64,000 bases of DNA from Psammoneis japonica (lineage: Eukaryota), in the NCBI GenBank assembly GCA_008632985.1, contig QPGO01000089.1, positions 124,001 through 188,000 on the forward strand, written 5' to 3'. The number at the start of each line of letters is the position of its first letter. Positions within the stretch are counted from its first letter, which is position 1. Below the pieces are notes generated by a model, which made no database searches, was not told the DNA's origin, and was given only the letters and a program-made list of their open reading frames with translations. Shown one piece after another: positions 5,138 to 25,609 of this stretch. A program made the position numbers and the translations under genes.

Positions 5138-6540
5138 GACGATCAATCGACCTTACAAGCTGTAACAAAAAGCAACAATGATCTTTAGTGAATAAGAAAA
5201 CGATATAAAATGATAAGACACAAAGAGAACTTACCGTCGCAACGTTGTCGACCGTAATCACTGTCTCGGGTGAAGCCGAAGGAGAAGTTGAGATTCGGTC
5301 CGATGGGTGCGGCATCCGACGCAAATGGCGGATGAGTTCTACCACCATGACTTTCTTCTTCACTTCTCTCTCACATGCTATAAAAGCGACAAGTCTCCAA
5401 GGTCGCTACACCTCTCGATCATCGACACTCTTTCGTACGTACAAGTAGTGTTTTTATGAGAGCTTGTTATCACGCACGATTGAAATCTTTCGCCAAATCG
5501 ACCGACCGTACGAGACGATCAATCGACCTTACAAGCTGTAACAAAAAGCAACAATGATCTTTAGTGAACAAGAAAACGATATAAAATGATAAGACACAAA
5601 GAGAACTTACCGTCGCAACGTTGTCGACCGTAATCACTGTCTCGGGTGAAGCCGAAGGAGAAGTTGAGATTCGGTCCGATGGGTGCGACATCCGTTGCGC
5701 AGATGGTACGGACACGTTCTACCACCATGACTTTCTTCTTCACTTCTCTCTCACATGCTATAAAAGCGACAAGTCTCCAAGGTCGCTACACTTCTCGATC
5801 ATCGACACTCTTTCGTACGTAGTGTTATTATGAGAGCTTGTTATCACGCACGATTGAAATCTTTCGCCAAATCGACCGACCGTACGAGACGATCAATCGA
5901 CCTTACAAGCTGTAACAAAAAGCAACAATGATCTTTAGTGAACAAGAAAACGATATAAAATGATAAGACACAAAGAGAACTTACCGTCGCAACGTTGTCG
6001 ACCGTAATCACTGTCTCGGGTGAAGCCGAAGGAGAAGTTGAGATTCGGTCCGATGGGTGCGACATCCGTTGCGCAGATGGTACGGACACGTTCTACCACC
6101 ATGACTTTCTTCTTCACTTCTCTCTCACATGCTATAAAAGCGACAAGTCTCCAAGGTCGCTACACCTCTCGATCATCGACACTCTTTCGTACGTAGTGTT
6201 ATTATGAGAGCTTGTTATCACGCACGATTGAAATCTTTCGCCAAATCGACCGACCGTACGAGACGATCAATCGACCTTACAAGCTGTAACAAAAAGCAAC
6301 AATGATCTTTAGTGAACAAGAAAACGATATAAAATGATAAGACACAAAGAGAACTTACCGTCGCAACGTTGTCGACCGTAATCACTGTCTCGGGTGAAGC
6401 CGAAGGAGAAGTTGAGATTCGGTCCGATGGGTGCGACATCCGTTGCGCAGATGGTACGGACACGTTCTACCACCATGACTTTCTTCTTCACTTCTCTCTC
6501 ACATGCTATAAAAGCGACAAGTCTCCAAGGTCGCTGCACC
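5138..6540. repeat. Tandem array of about 3.7 near-identical 374-376 bp units
   Basis: Anchor gatcaatcgaccttacaagc at 5141, 5517, 5891 and 6265; identical repeated ORFs in the track. Confidence 0.97.
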
Positions 6541-8199
6541 CATCATTGCGATGTCATTGCCATTCTCGATCATCGACACTCTTACTCTCTTTCGTGTGAT
6601 TATGACGACAGAAATCGCTTTCGCCAAAAATCGGAAACGGTTGGATAGTTTTTAGTTTTGTACAGAAAATGCGATAGTAATGCTGTACGTAGAATCAATA
6701 CCATGACCTAGTATGTAGAACATCGGAAGGACGAGCAGACGAGCCGTGCGCAGACGTAGATAGACAAGCCGCACGGAAACATTCAACATGTGACGAAGAT
6801 CTCACGCGGACAAAAAGGCAAAGAGAGCAGAATTTGATCCCTTCGAATGGATCCGATCGCGCAGAAAGATGTCGGATGTCGCATCAGCGCCGGCCATAAA
6901 ACATGACACCCAACTGCCGCTGATGGCCGACGGCTTTTGAGATCTTAGGGCTACACAACACTTCCCGTATTCGCTGGGCTGGTAAATCTCTCTCCTCAAG
7001 AAGACTGACTCCTGTTTGCCCCAATCTCACCACTGTGATTGCTGAATTAGGACAAAGCCAATGAGGCTGCTGTGCAGGGCCCCATTGGAAGGTTGTTGCT
7101 GGGGCTGACACAATGGTGACACAGGAAGAAGCTGCCATGAGAAAAATGGTTTCCAGCAAAGGGCTCTCTCATTCTGATGAAATGCTTGCTTTGGAGTTGC
7201 ACAAAAAAGTTGTTGCCAGAAAGCACACAAGACCATCAATCAGAAGAAAGTCTTGACCTCAAACACCCCACAAGGGAAAGCATCAAGCAACACAAGGAAA
7301 AGCTTTGACTCACTGATTTGTTTGCTGAGGCTGCAAGCATGACCCATCAAGAGGAAACCATCTCAAGTTGTTGTTGACAATGTGGTGTCCAGCACAGACT
7401 TTGATGCAGACCAGTCTGATGTGCACATCAAGCTGTTGTCAGGGGAGGACATCATGCCCAAAGAAAAGGAGTTTTTGTCACTGGCCTTTCAGCACATTGT
7501 TGCAGACAGAGGCTTGGAGAAGCCAGAAAAGAAGCGGCAGTTTGGAAAATGACCAAGAGACAAAATCTTGCTCATGAAAAGACCAAGAAAAAATCAAGGC
7601 AGCTGCTGCTTTGCCAGATTTTTGTCTTGAACAATGACTTGCAGCTCAACAGCAAGGAAGCTTTTGTCTGATTGGTGGCCAGTCAGGATCTTGCTTTGGA
7701 AGAGGAGGCTCTTGCCAAGTCTGCAAGCCAACAAATTTCATTGAGCATGGGCTTGGCACAAGAAAGAAGATGCAGCGCAGAAGGTGGTCTCAGGGGATGC
7801 TGTTTCTGATGAGGAAGTCCAGCTGCTTTTTTGGGCATGCCAGAAAAAGTCCAAATCCAGCCAAAATGTGCTTGGCAAGTCTCATGACAAGACTGAGAGG
7901 TGACAGACATTGAGACAGGAGAGGTTGCTGTGATGATGCTTCTGAGAGTGCAGGCAGAAAAATCAACGACAGCAAGAAGGAACAAGGCTCCCATGCAGAA
8001 AATGGTGTGTGGCAAAGAGCTCTCAACAGAAGACACTTTAGACAGCTGCTGGTGCAATGCAAGCCACAAACTCTCTCTCCAACACAAATGAGCCCACAAA
8101 CAAAATGAAGTTTGGGACAGAGTCTGGCTTCAGTTGCTGTTCTGACAAGAGCCAAGAAGAGGACTTCTTTGATGCCATTTGAAAGCTCACTGTCACTTC

Positions 8200-9320
8200 A
8201 AATCAGGAGAGCAGACTTGGACTTCCAAACTCTGCAAAGTGAGAGGATCCCATGGTGGTGCCAGCCAACCTGACAACTGCAAACTGAGGACATTGGTGGT
8301 CTCTGGGGACCCCAGATGACAGTTTGAGAACTGTGGCTGAGCATTGCAAGGTTGATCTCATGGTTTTGGGAAACCATGTCACCTTGTCACCAACAGCAGC
8401 AGACCCAAACTTCCAAAACTCTGGAGTGCAGGCATCCCATGGCAATTCCTTCCAACCCAACAACAGCCAGCAGAGGGCACTGGCAGCATCTGGTGGGCCC
8501 AGGGTGAGACTTCAAGAGCTGTTGTTGAGCATTGTGAGGTTGATCTTGTGGTGTTGTGCCTCAGGGTCACATTGTCCCCAACAGGAGCAGACTTGACTTT
8601 GCCTGCTCCTGAGTGCAAGGATCCCATGATGGCACCAACCAACCTGACAACTGCCAGCAGAGGGCATTGGTGGTCTTTGATGGACCCCAGGTGAGACTTC
8701 AAGAACTGTTGTTGGGCATTGCAAGGTTGATCTTGTGGCACTGTGACCATGTGCAAAGTTGTGCCCAACAACAGCAACCTTGAATTCCCAAAGTCCTGAG
8801 TGAAGGGACCCCACGACTGCTTCAACCAACCCAACAACTTCAAGCTGAGAACACTGGCACTGTCTGGTGGTGCACCCCAGGTGTGACTTGAAGAGCTGTT
8901 GTTGTTCAGCATTGCAGGATTGCTCTTGTGAGTTTTGGCCCCTGTCACATTGTGCCCTCAACAGCAGCAGACTTCAACTTCCACAAAGTTTGCACCAAAA
9001 GGACTCCATGATGTCACCAACCATGCTGCCAGCAGAGGGCACTGGCAGCATCTCACAACCCGGGGCAAGACTTGGAAAGTTGTTGTTGGGCATTGCAAGG
9101 TTGATCTTGTGGTGTTGTGGCCCCATCATGTCACCTTGCCCCCATCAGGAGCAGACTTGAGCTCTCAAACTCCCATGTGCTGCAAGGACCCCATGTTGGC
9201 ACTGACCAACCCACCAGCTGCCAGCAGAGGGCACTGGCAGCATCTGGCAGACCAGGGGCAAGATTTCAATGTTTCAAGAACTGTTGTTGTGCGCTGCAAG
9301 GTTGACCTTGATGTGAGAAT
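8200..9320. repeat. Degenerate tandem repeat, about 190-bp unit, about 6 copies
   Basis: Motif gcattg(ca/tg)agg recurs near 8341, 8529, 8717, 8909, 9090 and 9291; gccagcagagggca(c/t)tgg recurs between them. Confidence 0.85.
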
Positions 9321-9499
9321 TAAGAGACCTTTTTTTCAATCCAGCAGTGCTGGACAAAGCCAAGATCACATGAGCCAAGCCTGCTGCAGCTCCTTGACCC
9401 TTGATGCATCCACCCAAACAGAGCTGGAGCTGGCATGTTGTGCTGCAACTGTCAATTTAAACCTTGGGGGGAAATGGCGCACATGCCACACCTGGTCCT

Positions 9500-11060
9500 T
9501 CTGATGATGACAGTGTGGTGGATCTGACTGTGTTGAAGAGAGAATCAAATGCAGACATGGAAGAGGAGAATCAGATTTCTGCAATCAAGAGAGACTGTTG
9601 GGAAGCAAAGGAGGTGACAAAAAAGCCAAGGAAGTTCCAAGTGGCGCAGTTGACTCAACCAAACAAAACAATTTGATGCATGTCAAACTCACGTCAGAGT
9701 TAAAAGCTGATGAGCACAAGGATCTGCTGAAGGCATTGGTCAAACAAGTGGGGCGGAATGTTTGAAAAACACACAAAGCAAACCGGAAAAAGGCAGCCAC
9801 ATTGTGGCTTGAGTCTGCCCCCCCCCCCCCCTGCCTCCAGACCACACATTGTGCTAAACAAGAAACAACTGCTGAAGGTGTGTGTGCCCAAGACTGCCAC
9901 TTTTCATGTCACTGCACACTGCACTGCAGATCTCATGCAGGTGCACCAACGTGCCCCAACTCTGTGCTGACCAAGGCAAAATGCCAAGAAAGCATCAACT
10001 GTGCAGCGCTGCATGGACTGCAACACCTTTGTGAATGCCCTGGCTGGCTGGAAGAAGGTGCCAGGGAAGAGATCACCATTGCCTCTCTCACCCAGCCAAA
10101 AATTGCTCCTTTCATTGCTGTGCGCTCAAACTGTCTCAAGAATGGATCTGGCATCCTGACTTGCCTGTGAACAATTTTTGGTCTGCGCTCCCAGTTGGCA
10201 GCAAATTGCCCCAAGCTTCAGCAGCAAGAAGCCACTGTGCCTTGCACATCTGCAAGTGCTGCACATCCGCACATTGTTCACTCCCACTGATGTCAAACAG
10301 CATGGAAGTGTGAACATTTTCCAAAAATGGACAAACCAACAGAGATCTGCTCTGTTGGAAGCTGTTGTCTGTGGCTCTCCAATGTGAGTGCCTTGCCCCA
10401 GGCTGCAACAGATCTCTCATGAGAGAAACAATTGAGCTCCGTCAATGGCACAGCACCACATTGTGGTGGTGAGGAGCAAAAAGTGGAGGATGCAAGTGTT
10501 GAAGTTGTTCTCACTGATTGCAGGGTGCTGATGCAGCCAGGAATGAAAATGCTGTTGTGGAGACAGACCTCCCTTTCATCACAGCATGGTTGCTGACACA
10601 ACACCACAAAAGCACACAGACAGAGCTGTCGCCACAGGAGCTGCAAATGAGTGGCTGTGCAAATGCAACAAACTCATGGCAGCAAGACAAGAACTTGTTG
10701 CACAACAGGACTCAGACAATGCAAGAAATGCAAAAGGGAGGGTGTGTCATGTGCAAAACAAAGACAGCCAACTGCCACATGGGGTGTCACATGAGTTGCT
10801 GCAATGACTCCTTCACAATGAAGGAAACAGTGTGCAGGAGTTTGCTGTGGGTCCCATCCTTTGCCATTTGCAGCTGCGCCAAACAATGCATCCAGCCCAG
10901 TTGCACGTGGGTTCTCCACACCAAACTTTGGCACCAAAACAGAAAGAGAAGAAGTTCATGGCACCACAAAGCCAATGACTGTGCGTCCATTCTAGATGCT
11001 TGCTTCACTCAAGAGCACCGCGCAGCTCTGCACCCAGACGCACAACAGCACCACAATGAT
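9500..11060 (+). pseudogene. Degenerate DNA-transposase-like remnant ending in a Cys-rich motif (possibly piggyBac-like)
   Basis: Fragmented frames ending in CVMCKTKTANCHMGCHMSCC, reminiscent of a C-terminal CxxC zinc finger. The superfamily is not established. Confidence 0.3.
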
Positions 11061-11343
11061 TCTGAAAACAAGCAAACACACACAGCACCAGTTTTTTAAT
11101 TCAATGCAAACCCATCAAGAGTGTTGTCTTTTGCAGTTGGCTGCCTTTGCTTGGTGCAACCCCTTTGCACTTTCGCTGAATTTTGGTCAGTTGCCACACA
11201 AGGTTTGTGTGGCACTGCTGCGGACATGTGAAAAACTGCTTTGGAGTCACATGTTGATGAGGATGACCAACAATGTACAAATTTTTAGGCAATTCAATGC
11301 ACAAATTTTTGGGCAATTGTTTGGAAAAACTCAAAATTGCCGC

Positions 11344-11603
11344 GGCCTGTTCCAGCTCCAGGTGCTCTGCTTTTCATCACGCGAGAGGCCGATTTTCTGC
11401 GCAGTTTGGCGCAATTGGCTCCTTCAATTTTGATCGTTTCGAAAATCGAAAGGTGAGTGTACACCCAAAAATACATGTAAAGTGCACACTTGCCCTTCGA
11501 TTTGGCAAAAAACGGATTTGGAAAAAGTTAGTTGCGCTAAATGCACAAGTTTCCAAATGATGGGAATCGAACCCGCGCAGAGCACCTGGAGCTGGAACAG
11601 GCC
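11344..11603. mobile_element. MITE, 260 bp, perfect 27-bp TIRs, candidate 4-bp TSD CCGC
   Basis: ggcctgttccagctccaggtgctctgc at 11344-11370 and its reverse complement at 11577-11603; ccgc at 11340-11343 and 11604-11607. Confidence 0.8.
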
Positions 11604-13559
11604 CCGCGTCAACTGTGCGACCCAACCATCACAAAACACAGCCATCAAGTGTGATGACAGCCCCGCCAGTCAAGCCAGTGCAATGCTGTGTGACAAGACA
11701 TGCAATGTGCAACAAATGCAAAAATCATGAGAGGCATCAGAGCAACAGAGGCAGCGCAACTCTGCAACAATGGAGAAAGCACTGTTGCAGAAGATGATTG
11801 CAAGAACAAACAGATTTCATGCACAAGCTCTCTGAGGGTTTCTGTGCAATGCACAGATTTCACACCAGCAGCCTCCTCACAGGGTGATCTCATTCGCTGC
11901 CCCCAACAAACTCTTTCGCAGACACAAAATGTTTTTCACAACAATGACCAGCTTGATGGAGACAGGTTTTGGAGGCAGGTTCGCACGGTCCTTCATGGCT
12001 CATGGCTGCAATCAGGAAGGCCACCACACCACCCACAACTTGCTTCAACCAGAGACATTTCACTCAGCCCTCTGACCCAGTTGCTGCCCACCACCAAGGG
12101 CATCCAATGGTTTTGTCATCTGGTGGCTCCACACCATGGGGCTTGTGGGCATGTCATCATTTCCCTTGTCTGGCTGTGCTCCAGCCATGCTGGGGGCAGG
12201 GTCGGATGGTCGAGGAGCACGAGAGCAAAAGTGAGCTGCAACATTGTCAGCACAGCCCTTCTGAGTTGCACTGCAAACAGGATGAAGTTGGAGAGTGGCT
12301 CACGTGTCCTGCCCTCTCGCTTTTGTTGTTGTTGTGATGATGCTTTTTGACCTCGCTGTCCCTCGTCCGGCAGCCGAACCCGGAAACCTCGCAAGGCGTT
12401 GTTTCGTCGCAACGCTTTGCTGCCATGCCATTGCCCATTGCCAATGGTAGACTTGAGCAGGCCTGACGCTGTGTCTCACTCGCGATTGCTCATGATCGCG
12501 ACGACACAGCACCGCTTTGCCTTGCACTCTAGAGAGCAGACTCTAGAAGTGGCGGGAGTGTCCATCGAGGGCTTGCAGTGCACCAATGTAAAGCAACCCA
12601 TCGCCCTGCGAAACCATGAGCTCAGCATCATCTGCGCTTGTCCGGGGGATGATCCCATCGTTGCCATGAAGTCAAGCCTTCCAAAGCACGAGAAGTGTTT
12701 TCGCAAGGATGGCATGATGTCTGGGCACCTCAAACCTTTCCCGGACTTTTCTTTTCTCCCATGCGAGACTTTGTTCTTGATCCGACCCTTTGCCATCTCT
12801 GCCACTTTTGCTTCCCTCTTGGGAGAACAAAGCGATGCCATTGCTGCCCATGTGTTTCATGCCATGCTGGCACCAGCACGGCTTGTTTGCAACAAGAAGG
12901 TTGACAAAAATGACAACAACGAAGACGGAGTGCGAAGCACGGCGAGGAACTCAATCATGCATGTTGGGCCTTCCTCAAAGACTCCAAAGTTCACGCCTCC
13001 GTCTGACATGCAAAGTGCTTTTGTTGGCACCATTGCCTTGACGTGCAGCACCATTTCAGATGTTGCATCACATCGGCTGTGATGATGCCGAAGCAAATGA
13101 AAAAATGGTTCGAAGCCATGACGCAACTTGAAGCTTGCCCATTTGGATGCATGTGGTGTGGGAGATGAGGTTGAAGGTGAGCCAAGACAATGCATGGACA
13201 ACAGAAGCTGACTCATTCCCGCTTTTTCAATTTTCAGGCCCTCATGAAACCCATGTTGCAAGGGCGTTTGCCAGATGACATGAAGATCTTGAATGACATC
13301 CAGGAGAAGAATGACGCTGATCGTTGCGAGAAGGCTCGGCCTTGCAATGTCAGCAACATTGATGAAGAAGCCAAAGAAGGAAATCAACACAAGAGGTTCA
13401 CTGCAGCAGGCAAGGCGTGGACGCATGCACATCTTCAATTGTGCTTGTCTGGCTTTTGTTTGACTCACTCAACCATCTCCAAAACTCCTGGATGTTGCCA
13501 GTTCATGGAACCGAAATGATTCGGAGCGCCATTGCGAAGTGGTCGACCCAGAAGATTAA

Positions 13560-13870
13560 AAGACAGCGATTGCTTGTCATGCCAAGATAAATGTCTCCTG
13601 AGGACGCGAAACTCTTGCGCGCAAAGGACGACAGCGATGACTGCCATGTTCCACACCACTTTGCAGCTGTGGACACAGAAAACAAGTCAATTGTGTGGTC
13701 ATTGCAAGGTGCACTGTCAATGTCTGGATCCATCGTGGACATTCAGGGCATGGAATGCAAGTGGCGGGCATTTCTCATGCTGCGTTCTCACTGCAGGTGC
13801 AGAACGAACCCAGTCGTGACAGGCGAAACCTGCAAACAAGGAGTCTCAATGGCCTGTGCGTAAAGCATGT
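13560..13870 (+). pseudogene. Class-3 lipase-like gene fragment, mutated
   Basis: HFAAVDTENKSIVWSLQGALSMSGSIVDIQG resembles the Lipase_3 motif (F/Y)VAVDHxxKSIVxSIRGTxSxxDxxxD. Confidence 0.45.
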
Positions 13871-16169
13871 TCAGTGACCACTTTTGCCATGCCGAGATTG
13901 CAGACTTTTTCGCATCCCGTTGGTTTTCTCAACCGCTCAGGCAACTGTGTGAGGCATGCCTGAGCATGGGGCATGGCCAATGTCCCGCCCCCAGGTGTTC
14001 CGTGCGGGCACATTTTGACAATCGCAAACAAAACCAGTTTTCTCATCGCCAAGCTGCGTTTCTTCTTGTTGTGAAAGCAAGCCGCCTGGACCAGGTAAAG
14101 GCAAGCCGGAGCACAGCCACAAGTCACTTGTCTCTCGTGCAGAGCAATGAATCCTGGTGCATTGCCAAAACTGGGCACCGCAGCACAACAGCCGCAGCCA
14201 AGAAACTTTGACAGCAGGCACTTGCAGAATCATCTTAAAGCTCTTGATCAATGAGGTCGTTGTGATTTTTCCTGTGCTCAACATGTTGACAGGTTGCGCA
14301 CCTTTCGACAACATCTTTTGTTCTCTCTGCTCCACGAAAGACTGCTGAAGATGAGACGTCTACTCGCAAAAGCAACAGAGCATTGAAAACAGCAGCGATG
14401 GCATCAGAGTGCCACACGCGAGAGCTGCGACCGTCAACGCAGTCCATTGACATGCACACGGAATGAATGGCACGCAAGTGAAGATTGCTGTGCTGTGCTT
14501 TCAGTCTTTCTGCTTCTCTGTTGTAAAGGTTCAAAGTGTGTTTCGAACATTTGAAACACGCCAACATCAAAAGTTGACAGAAATCGGTCACGCAGGATGA
14601 CATTGCCTCAAGAGCGCCATCATTGGATGGCGCTCAAGCTCCCTCCTGTTTTTGGGGTGGAAAACCACCCCAAAAAAAAGAAAAAGGGGGGGCGCACTGC
14701 GGAGACAGCAAGAGAATCTTTTGAGTCAACCGTGCACTAAATCAACACTCCCTGCGAGTGAAGACTTGCCGCACCACGTCACTGACACGATGGAACCCCA
14801 AACCCCGTGTTCCGTCAACGGCATGATCTGCTTGGCGAGCTTTTGCTGCTTTGCAGACGAACGCTGCTGTCTGTTTCAACAGCCGTGACCTGACGGGTCA
14901 AGCGAACAGGCAACTTCCTGCGGTCAAAGACACAGGAGCAACATGGGCTCCAGGCCAGCGACACACACTCGATTTGCCCCGACCTCCGGACTCAACTGGC
15001 AACACCTGCATTGCCAATTTCCACAGCACATTTGTGCTGAAGCAACTTTGACAAAAAAAGAGAGACACGCCGCCAGCATTGGAGCCAAGCTCAAGGTGAG
15101 TTGGGGAAAAAGAAGGATCCGATCACACCGCGCGGATGATTCTGCGGGTGGTTGTTTGTCGTGCTTCTCGAATGATGAAGCGAAAGAGAAGTGCTTGACC
15201 CTTCTCCACAGACAGAATGCCAGCCTGAAACAGATGGTGTCGATGCTCCACAGGTGGGGTTCGTTGCACTTCTCTTCACCCATGGCACCATCATCATTCC
15301 CGCACCAATCACTGATGATTCCCTTGCGGCGTTTGTGCGGAGATGAGCAGATTTTTGAAAACGGGCGTTGTTTGAAAATGGAGGAAAATGATGTGGCTGG
15401 AAAACCAATGGGTGTCTTTTGCTGTCACATTTTGTGCAATTTTTGCGAACCCCTGCGACGTCAGCCAAACTTCAAACAGCGCGAGCTCCGATCTCCAGAT
15501 TTCCTTGTCTCTACACTCCACACACACCGCACCGCATGCTGCCACAAGCCATGTGCACTGGTGCAAAAATCACGCAGAAATTTTACGTAGAAAAAAAATC
15601 ACAAAAATCAGGGTTTGGGCCGATTTTTTTCTCGTGCTTCTACCGTGCTTCTCCGCTCCACCGACGCCTCAAGGAATCGTTTTTCCCTGAAACCATTGAC
15701 ACTTTGCATGATGACTTTTACACAAGTGACACCATTCTGTGCATGAACACTTCAAAATTCCATTTTCAGAAATTTGATCAACACTTCACTGTGGTCTCAC
15801 CACGGTGAACATTTTCCAATGATGGAATTTTGCGGAACGGTGGACATCGTCGTGTTTGTCACACAAAAAAGTGAGCACGCAAAGTGTCAGCCGTCATGTC
15901 TGAAAACGATTCCTTGAGGTCGTGGCCTGTTTTTCGCAAAGCACGGGGCGGGGAAAGCACGACGAACAAGACACTGCTGCGTGAATTTTCTGCATGAGTT
16001 TTGCACCAGAAATCGGCCCAAACCCTGTTTTTTGGGACTCACAACCCCTGCACATGGCTTGTGCTGCCCATGGTGGACGGCGCCAGTCATCATGTCAATG
16101 TCGTGCTGAACTTCACCGGTGTCACAACATGCTAAAAGCACCCACAATCATGGGCTGAAGTGGGGACAA

Positions 16170-17175
16170 GAATGTTTCATCTCATGAGATCGCATCGGTG
16201 CGGCGGATCAAAAGGTCGGCGATGCCGATGGATGACAGGCAGATCGGCGCCATTGTTTGTCAATGCGAGCAATGCCCCGGATGACTTTGATCCATCCAGA
16301 GCTGTGGTTTGTGACTCCTTTGTGTCACATGAAGAAGGAGAATCTCCAGTGTTGGATGTGTTGGCTCGAATGCGTCGGCAAGTGACGTGAGCTTCATGCA
16401 GAAAAGTGCCTTTTGCTTCTGACACACTCACAACCTGCTTCTGTTGAAGCACCGCCACTGGACGTCGGTGCGAAAAGGGACACTGGGATGCAGTCATTGC
16501 GGGCTACAAAGAAGTGGAGCTCTTGGATGAATCTGTGCTCAGCGACGCTTCAAGAATTTGGGGGAAGTCTCCAGCCAGCTGCTGGCTGAAGAATTTTGTG
16601 TAGAAATTGTGCTGAAAGAGTCTGTCAATCTGTGCGTCAGGGGGGTTTGGTGAAAGCTGCACAGACTCGTCTTCTTTTGCGTGCGTAAAAATTGTGCTTG
16701 CAAAACCCCCAAACGCACTGACAAGCAGACTTTTTTCAGCCAGCAGCTGGCTGGAGTCTTCCCCCAAATTGCAATGGATCGTGTTCGAGAGCAATTGTTG
16801 ACCCATCATTTGCACACTTCCAGAGAAATTTTGTTTCTGCCGTGTCACGCGATTGATTTGAAAAAGGATGGCAGGCTCAAGGCTCATGTCGACTCTGTCA
16901 AATTCTCTGGAGATGTCGTTTCCGGAGTTGGTCTGCCATCTTCCAGCATCATGAGACTCAGACCAGAAACTTCAACTCAACAACAAGGCAAGATGATTCA
17001 GAGGAGCAGTCGGAAGGATGGGTCGACTTGCATCTTCCACCCTTGTCACTCCATGTTTTTTCAGGAGCGACTCGATGTCATTGCACCCACCAGCCACTTC
17101 CCTCTGCCTCTGTCTTTGAAGCACCCGACGGAACAGCTGCGACTGTCATTCGTGATCAACGACTCAGTGTGACAT
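16170..17175 (+). pseudogene. ALKBH7-like 2OG-Fe(II) dioxygenase copy, mutated and interrupted by a MITE
   Basis: RRCEKGHWDAVIAGYKEVEL...AIDLKKDGRLKAHVDSVKFSGDVVSG...SSSIMRL matches the ALKBH7-family HWDxxI and HVDS motifs; frameshifts present. Confidence 0.75.
16559..16766. mobile_element. MITE, 208 bp, about 32-bp TIRs, AATT TSD
   Basis: tgggggaagtctccagccagctgctggctgaa versus the reverse complement ending at 16766 (1 mismatch); aatt at 16555-16558 and 16767-16770. Excision restores the frame SDASRIAMDRVREQLL. Confidence 0.88.
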
Positions 17176-17803
17176 TCCTTGATGCCAAGGATTCGTAAAT
17201 GGTGTGTGGTGTGCTGGCAGCTCTCGTTGCGCATTGCTCGAACGTGGTTCCTTCTCTTTAGATGGCTCTTGGTCAATGCACACATGGGTCACCGTCTGAC
17301 GTGCAAGTTCGCGCTTGCATTGAAAGGACGACAACACTGCGGCTTGAATGAAGCCTCTCACAAAAGAGAAAACCCTGTCTGTGCACTGCACTCTGTTTTC
17401 AATGCAGATGTCATTGCACTCACGCCCATCTTGTCTCGTTCTTCTTGCGATCAAGATCCGGCTTTGCGATCTCAATCATTGAGTGGGCAGGCCGTTTTTG
17501 TGCTCTCCACCTCGTGCCGGTGGGGGGAAAGGGAAAAAAGTGTGTCATCAAGTGTGTCATGAGTGTGTCACTCAAGTGTGTCAATTTTTTACGCGCAATT
17601 TTGCACGTGTTTCGTCCAATGCGATTAAAACAACGTCACAGTGACGTCCAGTGACAGAAGGCCCGCACACGCCGCCACGTGTGCGTGTGAAGAGGAACCA
17701 CCACCACACGATGCAATCAGAATTCTGAACTGATGCGCGGCCACCCACCACACAGTGCACACCGTCCAAGTTCACATTCACATCGTTTGTGTGTTGGCAG
17801 ACC

Positions 17804-18964
17804 ATGATGTCGTCAAGTGTAAAGAATGACTTTCGTGCACTAAAGGCAGCTGTCAAGACTTCCATGAGGGAAGGAGGAATCCATTGTTTTGCCGCATCCA
17901 TGGGAGGTGGGGCAAACAACATGGAGGAAACACCCACCAAGCACATTTGTTTGCCTTGCGCCGCTGAGCATGGGGTGGAGTGTTCCATCCAGAAAGCCAC
18001 CACCCTCACCAGCCACTGCCAGAAGCATGGCCCTAAATGTGTGCACTTCAAGGCCTGGAGGAAGCACTTGAAGAGTCTTCAGAAGAAAAGGGGAAAAAAT
18101 GATGTCTCTGAGGGCACCAACAAGAAAAGGAAGATGGCTCCAAACAGCGACTTGGATGATGATGTCTCTGAGGACACTGACGGTTCCTCTGCCTGCAGTT
18201 CCTCTGATGATGCTGTTGCTGCTGATGGCTCTGATGATGCAAAGGTGGCAAAGTTGCCCCAGAAACACAGGAAGAAGAAGAGCAACAAGACAGGAAAGAA
18301 GCCCAACAAATCCCATCATGAGGGCATGGCAGAAGAAGACACACCGGCGGGCCACGGTGGCAAGGCCTTCCCAGAGGTTGCTGTTGTTGAAGCACATGAG
18401 CCCAGGAACAGGCGCCCGGTGGCAGCAGAGGATGCCATTGTTGCACAACATGGAAGGAAAAAGCAGATGGCAATGAAGACCATTTTGTCACACCGACTTG
18501 CCCCCAGGGGAAATCTCAAGGATCCAAAGAACTACGAACAGCACCACGTCGGGGACAAGGACCAACCTGAGGAAGATGAGCAGGTGGGTGATGGGGAGGA
18601 TGGGCAGAAGGACAAGCCGCAGGAGTTGCAGGACGAGCAGCAGAGGCATGACGAGCCACAGGAGGAGCAGTGCGAGCCGCAGGACGAGCAACAGGACAAG
18701 CACAAGTCCAATCCTTTTAAAGGTCGATCTGCAGCTGCTGCGACCAAGGCATGGCATGGCTACATTGAGTTTCAGGAGGGCCACAAAAGCGACAAAGACT
18801 TCAAAACAAAGGTGACCATGTTGGGTTGTTTTGAGAGAATTGGAGGAGAGAAGGTTTTTGTGTTGAAAGCCTTGGACAAAAGCAGTTGCGCCGAATTGAA
18901 AAACGCAACAAAGGCTTGTCCACCAGATCCGGCAAAGGCTGAAAAAATCTTGCGCCACATGTGA
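17804..18964 (+). CDS. MULE accessory ORF (Cys/His zinc-finger-like N-terminus, Lys-rich and acidic tracts), heavily mutated
   Basis: Open frame of about 386 aa inside the TIRs; CLPC...HCQKH motif, KKRK NLS-like patch. Confidence 0.5.
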   Translation: MMSSSVKNDFRALKAAVKTSMREGGIHCFAASMGGGANNMEETPTKHICLPCAAEHGVECSIQKATTLTSHCQKHGPKCVHFKAWRKHLKSLQKKRGKNDVSEGTNKKRKMAPNSDLDDDVSEDTDGSSACSSSDDAVAADGSDDAKVAKLPQKHRKKKSNKTGKKPNKSHHEGMAEEDTPAGHGGKAFPEVAVVEAHEPRNRRPVAAEDAIVAQHGRKKQMAMKTILSHRLAPRGNLKDPKNYEQHHVGDKDQPEEDEQVGDGEDGQKDKPQELQDEQQRHDEPQEEQCEPQDEQQDKHKSNPFKGRSAAAATKAWHGYIEFQEGHKSDKDFKTKVTMLGCFERIGGEKVFVLKALDKSSCAELKNATKACPPDPAKAEKILRHM

Positions 18965-19345
18965 TGGTGCAGAAACTCCTTGATGTGTGACATTGTGCAG
19001 CTTCATGTGTCAACACTAAACCGGCATTTACACCCACATGTTGTCATGCCATGTTTGTTGTGTCACATCACATCATGTGATGTCATGTGATGACATGTCA
19101 TGTCACATCACATGATGACATGATTTTGCACTTCAGCCAAACACACAACAATTTCGTTCACGTGTGACATTGTGCAACTTAATGTGTTGACATCATGTCA
19201 CATTGACCCAAAATGAGCTAAGATGAGCTAAATGTTGAAGAGCCCATGTCTGGATTTACCATCACGCTGCATGCAATGGTGCTTGAATTGTGCCATGATT
19301 TCACCTGAGATGAGCAAATTTTCAATTTAACCTGGTGTGAGCATC

Positions 19346-19560
19346 AAATAAAATTGCAGAACCAATGTCTGAATTTAAACAAAATTGCAGAACCAATGTC
19401 TGAATTTGCTTTGCTCTGCATTTGACAAAATTGCACAACTTTGCAGAACCAATGTCTGAGTTTGCTTTGCTCTGCATTTGACAAAATTGCATGACTTTGC
19501 AGAACCAATGTCTGAGTTTGCTTTGCTCTGCATTTGACAAAATTGCACAACTTGACACAG
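19346..19560. repeat. Tandem repeat, about 57-bp unit, 3-4 copies, inside the MULE spacer
   Basis: ttgcagaaccaatgtctga(a/g)tttgctttgctctgcatttgacaaaattgc repeated. Confidence 0.9.
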
Positions 19561-19742
19561 ACAATTGACAATTTTGCAGCTCATCACATGACACCAAAAA
19601 ATGAAATGTTGTCACAAACTAAATTGCAGAACTTGAGACAGACAATTGACATTCACGCAGTTCATCACATGACACAAAATGGTCACATTGTTTAACATCA
19701 TGTCATGTTGTGCAACATCACATGACACAACATCATGTCATG

Positions 19743-22700
19743 TCATGTTGTGTCATGTGATGTGATGTGATGTTGCACTTGAGTCAAACACACAATTAAA
19801 TGCCACACTTTCACAATGTGCATTGCAACTGAGTGACATGAAATGCAATTTTGTTGCAAACTAAAACGATGTGGTAAAATGTGATGTGGTGAAACAAGTC
19901 TCCACACAGCCAAAAAAGTCAGATGGAAGTGAACTTTTTGGGGCACCAGGCAACTCTTCTCCTGGTTGCCTGGTGATGCCCTCAAGGGGGGGCGCTGCTT
20001 GTTTCTGTGTCCAACAGTGACTGGAGCACCCTTTTCGCCTGCAGTGAAAACGAGTGTGTTTTGAGCACACTCTGTTGTTGTGTGGCAGAAGATTTCCTTC
20101 TTTGGCCTTCTCCGCACCCTCACCTGCATTGCCTCCTGCCCTTTCTTAACTCTTCCTTCACATCCCCTGCACTTTCTCCAGGACTCCATTCTGTCCACAA
20201 ACACAAACCTGAACTCCTCTTGAGAGCTGCCATTTGCCAATTCTGTGGTTGTTGACGAAGCTGCTTCTGGCTGCGGATGATTTTCTGGAAGCTCCTTTGG
20301 TTGATCAAGGGGCTCCTTTGGTTGATCAAGGGGCTCCATGTTTTCTGGAAACTCCTCCATTGTGCTGTCATGTTGCATGTCAAGGTTTTCTGGAAGTTGT
20401 TTCTCTGGGCTGGCAAGAGCTGCTCTGTTCTCCCTGTCCAACACTTCGCACAAAAGCCACTGCAGATGAAACTCAGTCTCTCCATTGTTTTGCATGTCTT
20501 TTGCCTCCGCCTCTGTGACCTCAAGAGAGTGCACTTGACATTGTGGAGTGCACGTGCCATCATGTGCAACAAAGCAGTTTGGCAACTTTACAATGGTTTT
20601 GAAGTGGTTGCTGGTTGCCAAAATTGCTCCCTTGAAATGCAGTTCTTTGTGTTTGTGAGGAACAACAAATGGCAAAGTGTTGAATCTTTGAGAGGAAATG
20701 CTGCTGTTTCCACTTTCGTCCACCCCAAGCCCCATGTCTACAACCAACAAGTTGGACTCAAATGACAACAGCTCCTCTGTTTTCACAGTTGTCCTTTCAT
20801 GACACATCGCGCAATTTACTCTCCTTTGCTTTTTGAAAATTTCAGATTCAAAAAACTCAAGGTCAATCCTGCACAGCTTGAAAGGTGCTCACCCATCCAC
20901 CTGCCAAGTGTCTCTTGCAGCTGAGAGAGGTCATCGATGCACTCAACAACAGTGCGTGTTTCTGTCACATTGGTTGGCTGTGCACTGGGGCACCAATCTT
21001 TTCCACCAGTGCAGTTGCGCTCAAATTTGACCTGAAACTCGAATGACTCTAAGAATGGGTGACCAAAAACAACCGAAATTGATGGGCCAAACATGTCAAA
21101 CTTTTTTGCATGTGTGCTGCTCCTCACCACTGTGCGATCCATGTAAGGCAGCACTGTCCGGTCAGCCACCCAAAGATGGCAAGCATCATCATGCCTGCCC
21201 ACCTTCATCAGAGCCACAGTTCTTGCCAACAGGTGATCAGGCTGTTGAAGCTCAGCCATTGGCCTGTTCAGCAGACCAAGGTGGTCAAGGCCTCCAAAAA
21301 GAACAGCAAAGCTGTCCACAGGGCATGTGTTTGTGATTCCTCTGTGTGAGGGGGTGCCCTCCACACCCCACCTTGGTGGGTCAAACATCCTGGCCATCAT
21401 GGAATTGGGGTCATCCCAAGAGCAGAAGTCTGTGACTGATGTTTGCATTTGTGTCTTGCTTGGCATTGTTGATGCGTCTTTTTTGGAAGTTTTTCGTGAT
21501 CGCTTGAGCAGCTTTTCTGACGTGTCAGGAGCTCTCCCATCATTTGTGAACTTGTGCTTTTTGCTCCTTTTCCTTGGACTGTTGCAGCCACTCTTAACTG
21601 TCTGAAAAGCGCCACAACGAGTGGGGAGTCCAGCCTGAACTGCCTTCCTGTCTTGTTGATCGGAGTTGCAGAACTTCCATGCATGAAGAAGCGTTTCTCC
21701 AACTGTCATTTTTTTCCTGACTGTGCATGTTTGAAAACGCTTCCCAACATTCTCTTGAGCATTGGTGTCATCACAAAGGCTGTCATTTTTTTTTGCCTGC
21801 CTTTCATTGAGATTTTTGCAAGCACCGAAAAAAATTGTGGCTCGTTTGGGATTGAGGCACCACTTTAACCAAGAAGTGACCTTTGGGAAGCACTTGAAGA
21901 ACAATTTGCAGCTGCTCTCCAACTTTTCGTACTGTCCTTGTGCAAATGACCTCATCTCATTTACCTGGCGGTTGAACTCGCCCTCCAAATCAGCAGAGAC
22001 AACACCTCTGTTGCGGGCAACTCTGGCACGTGACCTCTCAAAGTGAACATTGCAAAACTTGCAAAGGTGATTGGTTTCTTCATCTGCAACCTTTGCCTGG
22101 TCAAACTTTTCTTTTGCAAACACTTTCATGGCTGCAAAAAAACCCTTCCGAATGGCATCTGAGAAGTCGCTGGTGTTGCCAGGAAACTCGTCCACAAACT
22201 GCGGCCACGACTCAGCTCGTGTGCACTGGAGCACAGCCTGCCAGTGCACCTTGCAGTGGGCTTCTGTTTTCCCAAACAGAATGCTGATGCAAAGAGGGGT
22301 CCACATTTGCAGGGTGAGGTCGATCCCTGAGGTGAACGTGACATTGATTTCACCTTGGAAGTCCGGATCAAAAACAACACCTTCCACAGAGTCTGTTTGC
22401 AGGGGGGCTGTTGCCTTCTTTCAACAGCTCAATCATGTCATCATTTTGCACAATGATGTGTTGATTTTCTGTGGTGAGTTGCTCACTTTGAATGAAGGAT
22501 CTGCCCACATCATTTCTGAAGTTTGCCAGCTCTGCGATTGAGGAGCGGACAGACATGGGCTTCAGCGCCTTTTGGCGCAAACAACTCACTCTGTCCAAGT
22601 TGAACAATGATGGGTGCAGCTTTGAAACTGGTGCCCTGGTTTGGTTGCCAACCCTGAGCTGTGATGGAGTTGCCTCTGGAGCCAAAATGGACAAGATTGT

Positions 22701-23559
22701 CAAACGCACTTTGTGCTTGAGGCGTCAACTTTGATGGTGGGGGCTTGGGGTGTTTGTGTGTTCCTTTGTGCTGCACAAGCCAAGCAGAGCCTCCATCCTT
22801 TGTGAAGGTCATTGTGCAGGTGCAAGGCATGTGCTTCATTGCTGGCACCTTGCCCTCTGCGTTGCTTGGACAGTTTGGGCACACCAGCTTTGATGGCATG
22901 GGAGGCATGAACTTCTTTTTTCCACCCTGTGGCTGGCAGGGCCTTTCAACAAAAAGGCTGCAACCTGTGCAAATGTGGACACCCAAGCAGTGTTTGTAAA
23001 TTGTCTTTTTGGTGCCACGCTCAACACGAGAGTAGACTCCCATTGCCCAGCCAACACCTGGGCAGCGGCCTGGCAAATCTCCAGCAACAGACCACACTTG
23101 AGAGGAGTTGGGGAACTCGGGCAAGCCCACGTTGATGTTGGACAAGCCAGGGACAGAGGCAGCAGATGGGCCCAGGTCTGAAGTGCCAGACGGAGCTTTG
23201 GCAGAGGGGAAGCTTTTGGCAGCAGAGTGAGGCTGCCCCAGTGATTGGGTGCTTTTCCTGCCAACGGAGGACGGCGACAGCTGTGACACCTGAGCTCTGC
23301 GGGCCGCAGGTTGGCTGGAGCTGGGCTGCATTGGCGAAAAGCCAGCTTGAGCTGGAGCAGGCCAAGGTGTGGCAAGGTCAGGAGGCACAAGATTGGTGCC
23401 AGCTGCATTGTTCACCATCAAAAGCAGGTCTCTTTGGCGTTGCTCAAACTCCATCCTCTCCAGCAAAAGCTTGGATTGCACAAACTGAGCAAAGAAGCCT
23501 TGCTGTGCTTGTGGGGGGGGAGTGAGCCCATCCTCAGGCTCGCCCTTGGAGGTGCTCAT
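19743..23559 (-). pseudogene. MULE transposase with an N-terminal GCM-like (WRKY/GCM1-type) DNA-binding domain, frameshifted
   Basis: GWAM...KHCLGVHIC...CPNC...C...KGTHKHPKP (about 22740-23060); then DSVEG, SDFSDAIRKG, CNVH and TNAQE MULE-type motifs. Split over at least three frames (shifts near 22700 and 22400). Confidence 0.78.
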
Positions 23560-25609
23560 GGCTCAGCTGATGGTGTTTTTCAGGAGAAAAGATTTGTTGA
23601 ACAAGCTTGAGTTGAGATTTTCTGTCAAAATTAAAAATTGGGCCGCCGCGTCTGGCGGGTGGGTCAGGCTTCCTTTTTGCAAAAATGCAAAGACCAGCAA
23701 GAAGCTGCAAAGTGTGGATGGAACTCACCAAGCAGTGCTGTGCACTGGGCTCAGATCTGAACAAAAAACTTTCTCAGCCTCTTGGGGAACGACACTGAAC
23801 AGGAGAGGAGCAGGGGGCTTTCCAGAAAGGGGCGGCGACCGGTGCCTGGGCTTGCTGTGAGAAAAGTTTGTTGGTGCAGAAATGAGCCAACTTTTTCCCT
23901 GCTGGTGTTCTTTGTGGTTTTCTCCAACCAGCGCAAGTGCTCTGAGCACACCAGATCAATGTGTTCACCACTGGCAAAGCCGAATTAGTGACAACCAGGT
24001 GCCACAATTTTTCTGCACAAAATCTGCACCAGAGTCCTGCAGAAACAGTGTTCTGGACACAATTTGGCAGACACAAAAGAAAAACAAGTGCTGTTGACTT
24101 CTTTGTGTGACCAGAGTTTTTGTCAAGTTTTGGTGAAGAGCAGAAACAAGGAGAGAAAGAGTTGGTTGCGGAAGAAATGAAGCTCCTGTTGGTTGGCGTC
24201 GATTTGCCATTTTGATGTTTTGTGGTTCGCATCATGCAAAAAGGCGTGGATTCAACGCACAGTGTAGAAATCCACGCGGTCAGTGCTGCGGAAATCCACG
24301 GGATTAAACACAAAAACTCCAACTCAATTCTGGTTGCATGGACATTGGCACACAATGTCGTACAACACACTTTTCCCTTTTCCGCCATCAATTTGGTCGT
24401 GATTTTCGTGCATTCCACATGTTTGTGTGCCGGCAAGGGGGCTGTAGAAATTGAAAAACAAGTGTGTCAGGGGCAATTCAAATCGGTAAAAAAGTGTGTC
24501 AGCAAGTGTGTCACCCTTGTGTTTTTAAGTGCGCCACCCATGAGCAAACGAGTGTGTGTCACCCGGGTGCAGTTTGTGCAGAGTTTGCGTGATGGCATGG
24601 CACACTGACACACTTGACACACTTGTGACACACTTTTTTCCCTTTGCTCTGCCGGTGGTCACACCGGCATTCATTTCAAAATAATGTCACCGGGGAAGAT
24701 CAGGCTGGTGCTCCTTTTTGTGATTCGTGGACACTTTTTGGCACTTGTCTGCAACGGATGGTGGCACAATCGTTGCTCAAGATGCAAATGTGTGGTCATT
24801 CATGACATTCTTCTCACATTGGTTGGAGCATTTCGCTGCTTTCAACTGCCAGCAAGCACGAACCATGGTGACATTGCAAGCCTCAAATGAATTGTCCACT
24901 TGTTTGAACGTTTCGCAGGTGTTGTGAATGAAAATAAATGGCAAACTGCTCCAGCAACAGAGCACTCAGTGTCGATCATGTCGTTGGCAGGGCCCTGCCA
25001 CAACTCAGCCTCTGCTCGAGTGCCAAACTCTCGGCATCGCTGCTGTCCATTTTCATTTTATTTGGGCCATCGCGCGCAACAGGAATCATTCGAAAATGTC
25101 GCGTGGGTCACAATTGATGTTTTGCACAAGGAAAAACACAAAATCGTGCAGAAATGCACACAATGTCATGCGAGAGAGTGATTGGAGCTAATGACTTTTC
25201 GGGAACTGAATTGAAATGCTGTCTGGTTGACGGCATTGGCCTTCACTGTGTGAATCAAAATGCCGTCAATCAGATGGCATTTCAATTGATTTCCCGAGAA
25301 GTTGACATTCGTGTGTGGACGGATGGACAGACTGACAACAATTGTTTCTACGTGATGACTCTCAGGACCCGAATGATTCCCATTGATCACATCGCATGGA
25401 CAGACGCGCGGTCGCGACCCCCACTCATGTTTTTCTGGGGAGCCAGGACCAAGTTCAAAGTTCACGTTGAAAGTTCAATTCAAAAGACAACGAAGCTGTT
25501 GCAAGCTCAAGAGCAAAAGGTGGAACAAAAGAAGTGTGTTTCTCTAATTTTGTCAGAGAGGAAGGCTTTTTAAAAATTTTGCAAACAAAAAACAACCTCC
25601 AAGGAAATT

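Follow-up and report, generated by a model that had tools for sequence, protein, structure and literature searches.

We analysed a 64-kb window of contig QPGO01000089.1 of the diatom Psammoneis japonica (hereafter the window), in which genic DNA alternates with blocks that are almost free of the dinucleotide TA and that keep CG to different degrees. The long open reading frames (ORFs) of the non-depleted DNA encode ordinary eukaryotic proteins, among them a glycosyltransferase-like protein, an EF-hand protein and, at 1-4248 on the minus strand, a myosin that carries IQ motifs and ankyrin repeats. The myosin has relatives in Ditylum brightwellii (76% identity) and Cyclotella cryptica, with a best match of 88%. 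The original prediction, made from the letters of this DNA, had singled out positions 11610-17700 (the flagged stretch) as keeping CG while TA is rare. In total, TA is erased nearly completely (observed/expected ratio, o/e, 0.01-0.1) over about 58% of the window.

TA and CG content of the window

By dinucleotide count, the 6090 bp of the flagged stretch hold 25 TA (o/e 0.07) and 268 CG (o/e 0.69), with o/e values of 1.61 for TG and 1.55 for CA. At the genic density of 40.3 TA/kb about 246 TA would be expected there. Genic DNA at 1-6990, 35000-45000 and 51000-58000 has o/e values of 0.60-0.63 for TA, 0.97-1.12 for CG and 1.07-1.17 for TG and CA. The region 61000-62000 was found to resemble the flagged stretch (TA 0.10, CG 0.76). 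Both dinucleotides are nearly gone from 7010-11000 (TA 0.03, CG 0.09), 27900-33700 (TA 0.01, CG 0.14) and 45700-50000 (TA 0.01, CG 0.05; 4 TA and 12 CG), and most depleted blocks have CG at 0.05-0.4 with an excess of TG and CA. These counts agree with the original prediction, which had set the flagged stretch and 61000-62000 apart from 7000-11000, 27900-33700 and 45700-50000, where both were said to be missing.

When the window was divided into 128 windows of 500 bp, 53 were normal for TA and CG, 20 were low in TA with CG kept and 55 were low for both, and none combined low CG with normal TA. The two depletions are therefore nested and not proportional. It had been proposed that TA loss is uncoupled from CG loss, and that proportional depletion in all windows would count against this; with 20 windows of the one kind and none of the other, proportionality was not found. 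The word uncoupled nevertheless goes too far, as the two losses share their block boundaries, and blocks with lower CG also have lower residual TA.

Across all depleted DNA the o/e values of TG and CA are 1.55-2.0 and nearly equal to each other. GC content in the depleted blocks is gene-like (0.45-0.54), because the change of TA to TG or CA raises GC while that of CG to TG or CA lowers it. The share of TG was 0.38-0.60 per 500 bp and TG and CA were balanced in every block; runs tests detected no strand clustering of TG versus CA (z -2.5 to +0.2 in depleted and -2.1 to +1.0 in genic DNA). All reading frames and both strands are hit equally by the loss of TA. Of the 242 stop-to-stop ORFs of at least 90 codons, 182 lie in the depleted blocks (7000-35000, 45600-50800 and 59000-64000) and they occupy all six frames. 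This inflation arises because TAA and TAG are nearly absent; only the change of CGA to TGA truncates ORFs. Depleted DNA also has about 20% less TC/GA and about 10-15% more TT/AA than genic DNA, and TCC and TCT are lowered relative to GCC and GCT in the depleted blocks. The TC/GA deficit may be a weak trace of C to T change at TpC outside CpG, or just a difference in composition between coding and non-coding DNA.

Depleted blocks have edges that are sharp to tens of bases and that TA and CG share. On the left, CG ends at 6972 and regular TA at 6983, about 12 bp apart, and the other edges are alike. For comparison of the blocks we expressed survival as density relative to the genic density of this window, taken as the ancestral baseline, and treated TA in contexts of fast and slow loss separately. 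Both TA and CG are erased from 6985-11200 (survival of CG 0.10, of fast-context TA 0.01). The block of the flagged stretch extends over 11610-17800 (plus strand) and keeps CG largely (0.75) with fast-context TA at 0.05 and slow-context TA at 0.22. It is followed by a block of intermediate CG loss with transposase-like ORFs (17800-24200, minus strand, CG 0.30) and by a second block with CG kept and TA erased (24200-26000, plus strand, CG 0.65). Another intermediate block (26000-27800, CG 0.33, no fast-context TA) leads to a block in which CG is gone (27800-33600, CG 0.13, no fast-context TA) and to a last intermediate one (33600-34920, CG 0.51, one fast-context TA), after which TA resumes at 34925. 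Both dinucleotides are erased again from 45600-50800, with edges at about 45600 and about 50800-50930. Near the right end lie a short depleted block (58990-60190, CG 0.31, 4 TA in 1150 bp), a CG-kept and TA-erased block (60620-62000) with a young duplicate pair, whose copies at 61037-61400 and 61640-61950 are 91-94% alike, and a depleted block that reaches the end of the window (62000-64000, 2 TA and 25 CG in 2000 bp). Self-comparison of the window gave no mutual matches between depleted blocks, only internal tandem repeats, so the blocks are not copies of one family.

TA becomes TG or CA after duplication and is lost faster than CG

Three consecutive long ORFs on the minus strand (19746-20888, 20819-22420 and 22513-23562) belong to a hypermutated transposase-like gene with homologues to E 1e-82. 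Judged by sequence, this is probably a Mutator-type transposase gene; the label Mutator-type is taken only from Atlas leads, namely NOF-FB and MULE transposase clusters with scores of 0.79-0.89. Weak matches to GCM-type zinc fingers were obtained with Pfam (E 0.006) and in a profile search of PDB (GCM1, E 0.003), and Pfam gave no other family at E up to 1 for the transposase-like family, besides UCH in one homologue. The window ORF was aligned with translations of related loci from metagenomes, and columns with tyrosine (Tyr; TAT or TAC) in at least 60% of at least five unaffected homologues were taken as conserved. Seven columns qualify, and at these the window has TGC, TGC, TGC, TGT, CAT, GCT and GGA. 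Tyr was thus kept in 0 of 7, as compared to 96 of 157 conserved columns of other residues, an outcome with a probability of about 0.001 were Tyr retained as often as the other residues; in a smaller alignment Tyr was kept in 0 of 5. Conserved Tyr codons that now read TGY or CAT therefore once held TA, which became TG or CA. In line with this direction, the ORFs of the depleted blocks differ from the genes in their content of Tyr (0.2 vs 3.2%), Cys (4.6 vs 1.5%) and His (4.3 vs 2.6%).

The closest relative of the transposase-like gene is L007, a public contig of 2034 bases (57% amino-acid and 65% nucleotide identity). It carries the same signature, with TA at 0.03 and CG at 0.13, a 349-codon ORF with no Tyr, 18 Cys and 14 His, and TTAA at three of its five remaining TA. 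One conserved Tyr position reads TGC in the window and CAC in L007. L007 may derive from the same species, as a further copy, or show this process at work in a relative. Among the 20 loci that encode transposase-like relatives only L007 is TA-erased, the other 19, some of them with CG at 0.16-0.22, having TA at o/e 0.43-0.88. Three relatives of the element from metagenome contigs, L016, L017 and L020, have CG at 0.16-0.31 with TA at 0.46-0.80; CpG decay without TpA erasure would therefore be the usual state elsewhere.

Copies of repeats within the window were used to place the changes in time. In a degenerate array of 187-bp tandem units (8244-9315, inside the block 6985-11200), the copies show TG and CA within one dinucleotide column in 16 cases, as compared to 3-6 for control double-transition pairs. 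In the duplicate pair at 61037-61400 and 61640-61950 we counted 21 events, of which 6 were TG against CA, 5 TA against CA or TG, 5 CG against TG or CA and 5 of other kinds. Both copies retain CG at 17 sites, and at 5 more only one of them does. There is no site at which both retain TA; at 5 sites it was lost from one copy, in addition to the 6 TG-CA doubles, which must come almost entirely from TA because so few CG were lost. By this arithmetic one copy lost all of at least 11 TA and 4 of 22 CG, the other 6 of 11 TA and 1 of 22 CG, and the loss of TA per site was at least about 12-17 times faster than that of CG. Both the original prediction of a process separate from CpG decay, now seen as a transition of TA to TG or CA with a flanking-base rule of its own, and that of a faster or earlier one are borne out, the latter by the 0 TA and 17 CG kept in the pair and by the missing class of windows with low CG and normal TA.

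Further differences were found between the window and contigs of related copies, taken from a public run (X1) and a second run (X2). At 14754, 14768, 14772 and 14786 these contigs have TA where the window has TG or CA, and at 14209, 14791 and 24194 they have CG where it has TG. The best-supported 40 of 1371 differences to related contigs, to which these positions belong, were examined. Among these 40, TA in the other copy faced TG or CA in the window 5 times and the reverse held twice; CG in the other copy faced TG in the window 3 times, and 2 were TG-CA doubles. The differences of X1 contigs are mostly transitions (1005 vs 336 transversions). As read from the copies and homologues together, TA is lost by transition to TG or CA after the sequences arose.

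The loss of TA depends on the flanking bases. Survival was highest at TTAA (0.675), followed by CTAA/TTAG (0.26), GTAA/TTAC (0.12), CTAC/GTAG (0.065), CTAG (0.063), ATAA/TTAT (0.035), GTAC (0.034), ATAG/CTAT (0.007) and ATAC/GTAT (0.005), with 0 of 58 expected-scale sites at ATAT. With respect to the base 3' of A the order of erasure is TAT > TAC > TAG >> TAA, with TTAA nearly spared; on the T strand the same rule makes ATA the fastest and TTA the slowest. A fit of per-strand products gave s(TAA) 0.82, s(TAG) 0.32, s(TAC) 0.14 and s(TAT) 0.04, and predicts 0.10 for CTAG, 0.02 for GTAC, 0.046 for CTAC/GTAG, 0.014 for ATAG/CTAT, 0.006 for ATAC/GTAT and 0.002 for ATAT. TTAA is nearly spared because the losses on the two strands multiply. 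The context order came out the same in each of the three block classes, CG-kept, intermediate or CG-gone (chi-square p 2e-5 to 4e-19), and it looks like the specificity of an enzyme that acts on each strand independently.

A flanking-base rule was also found for CG. In the CG-gone blocks its survival was 0.011 at TCGA, 0.021 at CCGA/TCGG, 0.065 at ACGA/TCGT, 0.124 at both ACGT and GCGA/TCGC, 0.24 at CCGG and 0.488 at GCGC, so that CG is lost fastest at TCG and slowest at GCG. As TCGA was lost far more than ACGT, this is an effect of a 5' T and not of flanking A or T in general. The bias could come from a biased methyltransferase, from a cytosine deaminase, or from the same 5'-T-preferring enzyme that acts on TA.

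The blocks were then pooled by class. Survival of CG, fast-context TA and slow-context TA was 0.74, 0.078 and 0.22 in the CG-kept blocks, 0.33, 0.028 and 0.28 in the intermediate blocks and 0.11, 0.004 and 0.067 in the CG-gone blocks. Internal duplicates are 91-94% alike in CG-kept and 66-77% alike in CG-gone blocks, and the order of the classes is consistent with a time axis. The ratio of -ln survival of fast-context TA to that of CG is about 8, 3 and 2.5 in the three classes. The bulk of TA is at the floor and says little about age; variation is left in CG and in the slow TA contexts only. The idea that the two ratios could date successive layers of insertion thus holds as a rough order, and is weakened by the TA floor, by the changing loss ratio and by a possible contribution of chromatin state. 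As a relative clock for repeat layers the two-speed loss would read, roughly, TA normal, then TA lost, then CG lost. The oldest blocks have 2 fast-context TA in 16.8 kb, although about 230 TG plus CA per kb could regenerate TA by C to T change, which suggests that scrubbing ran until very recently.

Embedded elements and relatives of the flagged stretch

Two elements resembling miniature inverted-repeat transposable elements (MITEs) lie within the depleted DNA. The first (11343-11605), with 27-bp terminal inverted repeats at 11346-11372 and 11579-11605, still carries 5 TA and 15 CG in 263 bp. X1 depth in its bin was 14754 as compared to a few hundred in the adjoining bins, which indicates a very high copy number, and the X1 contigs on it have loose ends that go into unrelated sequence. 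The second (60195-60615), whose terminal inverted repeats are readable in the sequence, has full TA and CG content, with 32 TA and 28 CG in 421 bp (76 and 66.5/kb), the dense TA being confined to 60199-60595. Either these two elements form the youngest layer, or targeting passes them by.

The sequence of the flagged stretch is multi-copy: over 14339-17006 the depth of X1 is 1700-4000. Contigs of X2 that are 85-95% alike to the window cover 12338-17673. A related copy represented by an X2 contig lacks a 61-nt GT..AG intron at 13177-13237 (plus strand): the contig has 36 letters matching 13141-13176 and then resumes at about 13236. Run X2 is labelled 'DNA?', and from the missing intron, the one indication at hand, it is probably RNA. 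Relative to the related transcript-like contig, intron-like gaps at 13410 and 16378 start with GCAAG, the form that GTAAG takes after a TA to CA change. The intron at 13177 starts with GTGAG; GCAAG and GTGAG are both still usable 5' splice sites. A 213-bp insert (16557-16769) with inverted-repeat ends of about 24 nt, which are reverse complements apart from one base, is not in the related X2 copy (joint 16556 to 16770). Apart from genic DNA, X2 contigs are confined to the CG-kept blocks (12338-17673 and 24344-25000), and none was found on 7002-11670 or 17674-24343. The read-through ORF 11694-13079 (plus strand) gave no homologue and the ORF 17729-18961 (plus strand) gave 0 matches among 1.84 billion representatives; the true reading frame may differ in both.

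One X1 contig that joins 17559 to 24003 hinted that 17560-24002 is an insertion into a CG-kept element, and this was not used. The joint has 41 letters on its shorter side and 10 unmatched letters between, no terminal inverted repeats or target duplication were found for 17560-24002, and the fall of CG density at about 17800-18000, not at 17559, counts against a nested insertion. Within the transposase-bearing block, 19055-19117 and 19735-19777 have a ATGTGATGTC-like periodicity of 10 bp in inverted arms about 600 bp apart, and 19385-19553 holds three copies of a 56-bp tandem repeat, 95% alike. Within the depleted DNA, the 800-bp stretch at 19055-19900 is lowest in GC (0.40) and richest in residual TA.

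Pfam was run on 139 of the 182 stop-to-stop ORFs (at least 90 codons) of the depleted blocks. No match above the curated cutoff was obtained for 138 of them; the exception is an ankyrin-repeat ORF at 25574-26026 (plus strand; Ank_2, E 2.9e-11). No reverse transcriptase, integrase or viral domain was detected among the 139, and protein-domain scans found no deaminase domain inside the window. The original prediction had treated all the depleted DNA as transposable elements. This is supported for only part of it, namely the transposase-like ORFs, the two MITE-like elements and the DNA of multi-copy X1 depth.

Repeats of other kinds were also found. The block 45600-50800 contains degenerate internal repeats at 47075-48830, 66-80% alike. 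The duplicated unit of the 61-kb pair (61160-61260 and 61640-61730) has a tRNA-like T-arm motif (GGTTCGAAACCC) and may be a tRNA-derived short repeat; ARAGORN and Rfam gave no call at this motif, and Rfam and tRNA scans of the whole window had no match. Next to the myosin gene, 5138-6540 consists of 3.7 copies of a 374-bp tandem repeat, 97% alike, with an unusually high CpG o/e of 1.3-1.7 and normal TA, covered by X1 and X2 contigs. A contig that joins 5128 to 6253 points to copy-number variation of this repeat. In the genic DNA, two adjoining paralogues of M6 (immune inhibitor A-like) peptidases lie at 35227-39993 and 41707-43668. The first, 1588 aa long, contains a PT repeat and, at 38261-39476, an internal tandem repeat of 432 bp (91% alike).

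A fast TpA process and a slower CpG process as the favoured reading

At about 0.75 we consider it probable that the window is diatom nuclear DNA in which genes alternate with silenced repeat or mobile blocks that were hit by two context-specific transition processes, a fast one at TpA and a slower one at CpG. The fast process would be a targeted A:T to G:C change at TpA that gives TG or CA, at a rate set by the base 3' of the edited A. The slower one would be a C:G to T:A change at CpG, again giving TG or CA, fastest at TCG and slowest at GCG. Both would be confined to the same sharply bounded blocks and act after the DNA arose or inserted. The TpA process would saturate early while the CpG process keeps running, and blocks would pass from the state with TA gone and CG kept (11610-17800, 24200-26000 and 60620-62000) to the end state with both gone (6985-11200, 27800-33600 and 45600-50800). 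By analogy with Bigelowiella natans, the TpA process may be an enzymatic deamination of adenine in DNA to inosine, read as G, that serves genome defence, and it may have been active until very recently. The CpG process may be deamination of methylated cytosine.

In mutation-accumulation lines of B. natans, the preprint of Mettrop et al. (bioRxiv 10.64898/2026.01.13.699255, 2026) reports that 231 of 302 new mutations fell in integrated giant virus and virophage regions, where nearly all were A to G or T to C, and all of those at TpA. According to the same source, the rate of new mutations was raised about 1000-fold, 124 clusters of windows poor in TpA and rich in CpA and TpG exist genome-wide, and its authors propose DNA adenine deamination as a defence (bioRxiv 10.64898/2026.01.13.699255). 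The Psammoneis window is similar in the change of TA to TG or CA on both strands, in the lasting loss of TpA with gain of CpA and TpG, and in the restriction to discrete blocks next to normal genes, with 53 of its 128 windows fully normal; such blocks are foreign or mobile DNA in B. natans, and may be so here. In B. natans the TpA-depleted predicted genes are described as enriched for DDE endonuclease and reverse-transcriptase domains, and here a transposase-like gene is affected. The two cases also differ. B. natans is a chlorarachniophyte, that is a rhizarian, whereas the host here is a diatom, a stramenopile. Its nucleocytoplasmic large DNA virus region is given as only 1.8-fold lower in TpA and its virophage region as above the genome, as compared to near-complete erasure here. 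The targets recognised here are a transposase-like element and multi-copy repeats, with no viral gene among the tested ORFs. In B. natans the process was seen live in mutation-accumulation lines, whereas here it is read from the state of the DNA. The main text of the preprint has 0 occurrences each of CpG, flanking context, TTAA and diatoms. The present case thus adds a diatom, near-total erasure, the order TAT > TAC > TAG >> TAA with TTAA spared, and a layered, TCG-biased loss of CpG. No report of TpA erasure in diatoms was found in the literature searched, subscription journals being outside its coverage.

Repeat-induced point mutation (RIP) of ascomycetes is described as a dinucleotide-specific transition hypermutation of repeats that changes CpA to TpA and enriches AT (PMC2621366, PMC7296669). 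Like RIP, the changes in the window riddle repeated or mobile DNA, spare adjoining genes and blur homology. They are opposite in direction, as TpA is destroyed (o/e 0.01-0.1), CpA and TpG are at 1.55-2.0 and GC is unchanged, so that the DNA does not classify as RIP-affected. Unlike RIP, the change of TA to TG or CA makes no in-frame stop, and ORFs stay open or lengthen. With regard to a trigger by duplication as in RIP, the copies at 8244-9315 and at 61 kb mutated after duplication, and the copy number is known for few blocks. Decay of methyl-CpG in vertebrates and plants is attributed to deamination of 5-methylcytosine (PMC3829696). In the window, as in such decay, the CpG deficit is matched by an excess of TpG and CpA and is limited to silenced repeats; unlike it, the loss has a strong 5'-base bias (TCGA 0.011, ACGT 0.124, GCGC 0.488) and is always preceded by TpA loss. 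The strong TCG bias may leave room for an enzymatic deaminase or a context-biased methyltransferase. Transposons of diatoms are CpG-methylated. In fungi of the Pucciniomycotina, repeats undergo a TCG-targeted hypermutation, C to T at CpG with a 5'-T preference, which is not known to have a TpA component.

Deaminases of the ADAT2/TadA family turn A into inosine, which is read as G, and their tRNA target A34 follows U33, a T-A context; of the features seen here only the 5'-T preference for A and C fits the family. BjADAT2 of amphioxus is reported to deaminate C at TCG in DNA, the context favoured here, with an adenine context of GAA, unlike the one here (PMC10354150). Hyperediting by ADAR acts on RNA and cannot alter a DNA transposon relic on both strands. 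ADAR also prefers a 3' G, which differs from the 3' order T > C > G >> A found here. ADAR editing fixed by retrotransposition was ruled out by the balance of TG and CA, by the lack of strand runs and by the element itself, which resembles a DNA transposon.

Several observations weigh against two independent processes of this kind, or limit how far they can be read. The changes are deduced from existing sequence, namely a single 64-kb window, a related contig and the summary tables of one run, and X1 may share its sample with the assembly. Mobile DNA may have started from another composition than the genic baseline, which cannot explain the 40- to 100-fold contrasts and blurs the smaller ones. 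Within the 75 TA-low windows residual TA and CG are correlated (Spearman 0.54), and both losses favour a 5' T (T-A and T-C-G), so the processes are perhaps not independent. Retention of CG may mean an unmethylated state and not youth, as the probable-RNA contigs of X2 match only the CG-kept among the depleted blocks. The two MITE-like elements keep a normal TA content inside depleted blocks; they are very young, or location in a block is insufficient for targeting. Finally, most of the depleted DNA has no recognisable mobile-element or viral gene.

The first of these points bears on errors of base-calling or assembly at modified bases, which might have turned CG and TA into TG and CA. Long-read base-callers err in methylated repeats, and the blocks are probably methylated repeats. 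The k-mer contigs of X1 cover all 30 bins of 5001-25000, 584 of the 2672 are at least 99% alike to the window, and in the depleted blocks, at a depth of about 57-200, they depart from it by 0-8 letters in 420-600 bases; the depleted sequence is therefore not a one-off assembly error, although X1 may be the assembly's own sample. Independent errors on two strands would make TA as often as remove it, and would hardly give a clean multiplicative context rule. The changes of Tyr to Cys or His sit in sequences otherwise 40-57% diverged, and a separate public contig, L007, has the same signature. An artefact is thus largely refuted already and very improbable. The composition could also be intrinsic or selected, if a donor such as a virus or another genome avoided TA and CG or if selection acted against them; the targets in B. 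natans are integrated viruses (bioRxiv 10.64898/2026.01.13.699255), and most block DNA has no homologue. Yet conserved Tyr codons were destroyed, which damages the proteins rather than adapting them, all frames and both strands are affected equally without strand runs, and 19 of 20 related loci elsewhere have normal TA. As copies differ by TG against CA, and some relatives retain TA, this explanation is likewise largely refuted and carries hardly any weight. Chemistry at thymine is a further option that we hold distinctly unlikely. Modified thymines occur at TpA in some protists and formyluracil mispairs with G, and T in N-T-A (A > G > C >> T) might be oxidised or modified to hydroxymethyl- or formyl-uracil, mispair with G and change to C. 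A to G and T to C on the opposite strand look the same in sequence, and the context rule can be written either way. Among the evidence gathered there is no sign of such modification in diatoms, and the authors of the B. natans study favour adenine deamination, with an ADAT2-like candidate found by sequence, without functional test (bioRxiv 10.64898/2026.01.13.699255).

The correlation of the two losses and their common 5' T raise the question of a single TadA/ADAT2-like or other 5'-T deaminase that would edit A in T-A-N fast and C in T-C-G slowly, so that blocks with TA gone and CG kept are an early stage. The block boundaries are identical for both losses, low CG with normal TA was seen in none of the 128 windows, both types of change occur in the young 61-kb pair, and the loss of CG is biased to TCG (survival of 0.011 at TCGA vs 0.124 at ACGT). 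In addition, amphioxus ADAT2 expressed in E. coli is reported to deaminate C and A in DNA with a preference for 5'-TCG-3' for C, although the preferred adenine context in that study is GAA and not TA (PMC10354150). On the other hand, the ratio of TA to CG loss is not constant between blocks (about 8, 3 and 2.5), which TA saturation explains in part, and GCGC and CCGG sites are lost too. Relatives of the same element in other organisms lose CG and keep TA, and in the hypermutable regions of B. natans only 1 of 211 mutations is given as neither A to G nor T to C (bioRxiv 10.64898/2026.01.13.699255). We regard one enzyme for both losses as doubtful. Somewhat less unlikely, though still on the unfavoured side, is that CG retention in 11610-17800, 24200-26000 and 60620-62000 reflects chromatin state, that is a transcribed and unmethylated family on which TpA editing acts regardless, in which case the CG ratio cannot date the blocks. 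This agrees with the placement of the probable-RNA contigs of X2, which lack the intron 13177-13237 and lie only on genic DNA and CG-kept blocks. These contigs are 85-95% alike and thus come from other copies, however, and the 61-kb duplicates show loss of CG as well (5 events). The CG-kept blocks have about 20 times more fast-context TA than the CG-gone blocks (0.078 vs 0.004), and their internal duplicates are less diverged (91-94% vs 66-77% alike), both of which fit youth.

The state of the blocks has several practical consequences. The spurious long ORFs of the blocks are a trap for gene finders, and repeat libraries and homology searches fail on the blocks. Scans by GC or by RIP indices miss them, GC being normal. 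The flanking-base rule is a fingerprint that can be checked on candidate deaminases and on published mutation lists, and base-editing research would have an interest in any enzyme able to deaminate adenine within double-stranded genomic DNA.

A mutational defence by A:T to G:C change at TpA has been reported once before, in the 2026 preprint on one chlorarachniophyte. The end state over more than half of a 64-kb window in a diatom suggests that the process is widespread among marine algae and can shape large parts of a genome. We tentatively put forward, with the odds still somewhat against it, that diatoms have a RIP-like defence of opposite polarity, in which a 5'-T DNA deaminase system (T-A-[T>C>G>>A], perhaps also T-C-G) continuously scrubs TpA from silenced mobile DNA. 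Such a system may be ancient and widespread in the group of stramenopiles, alveolates and Rhizaria (SAR), because the same TpA signature arises live in a rhizarian alga. It would kill genes by missense and leave their GC content and ORFs intact. If true, this would be a third major mutational defence of eukaryotes, beside RIP of fungi and APOBEC/ADAR of animals.

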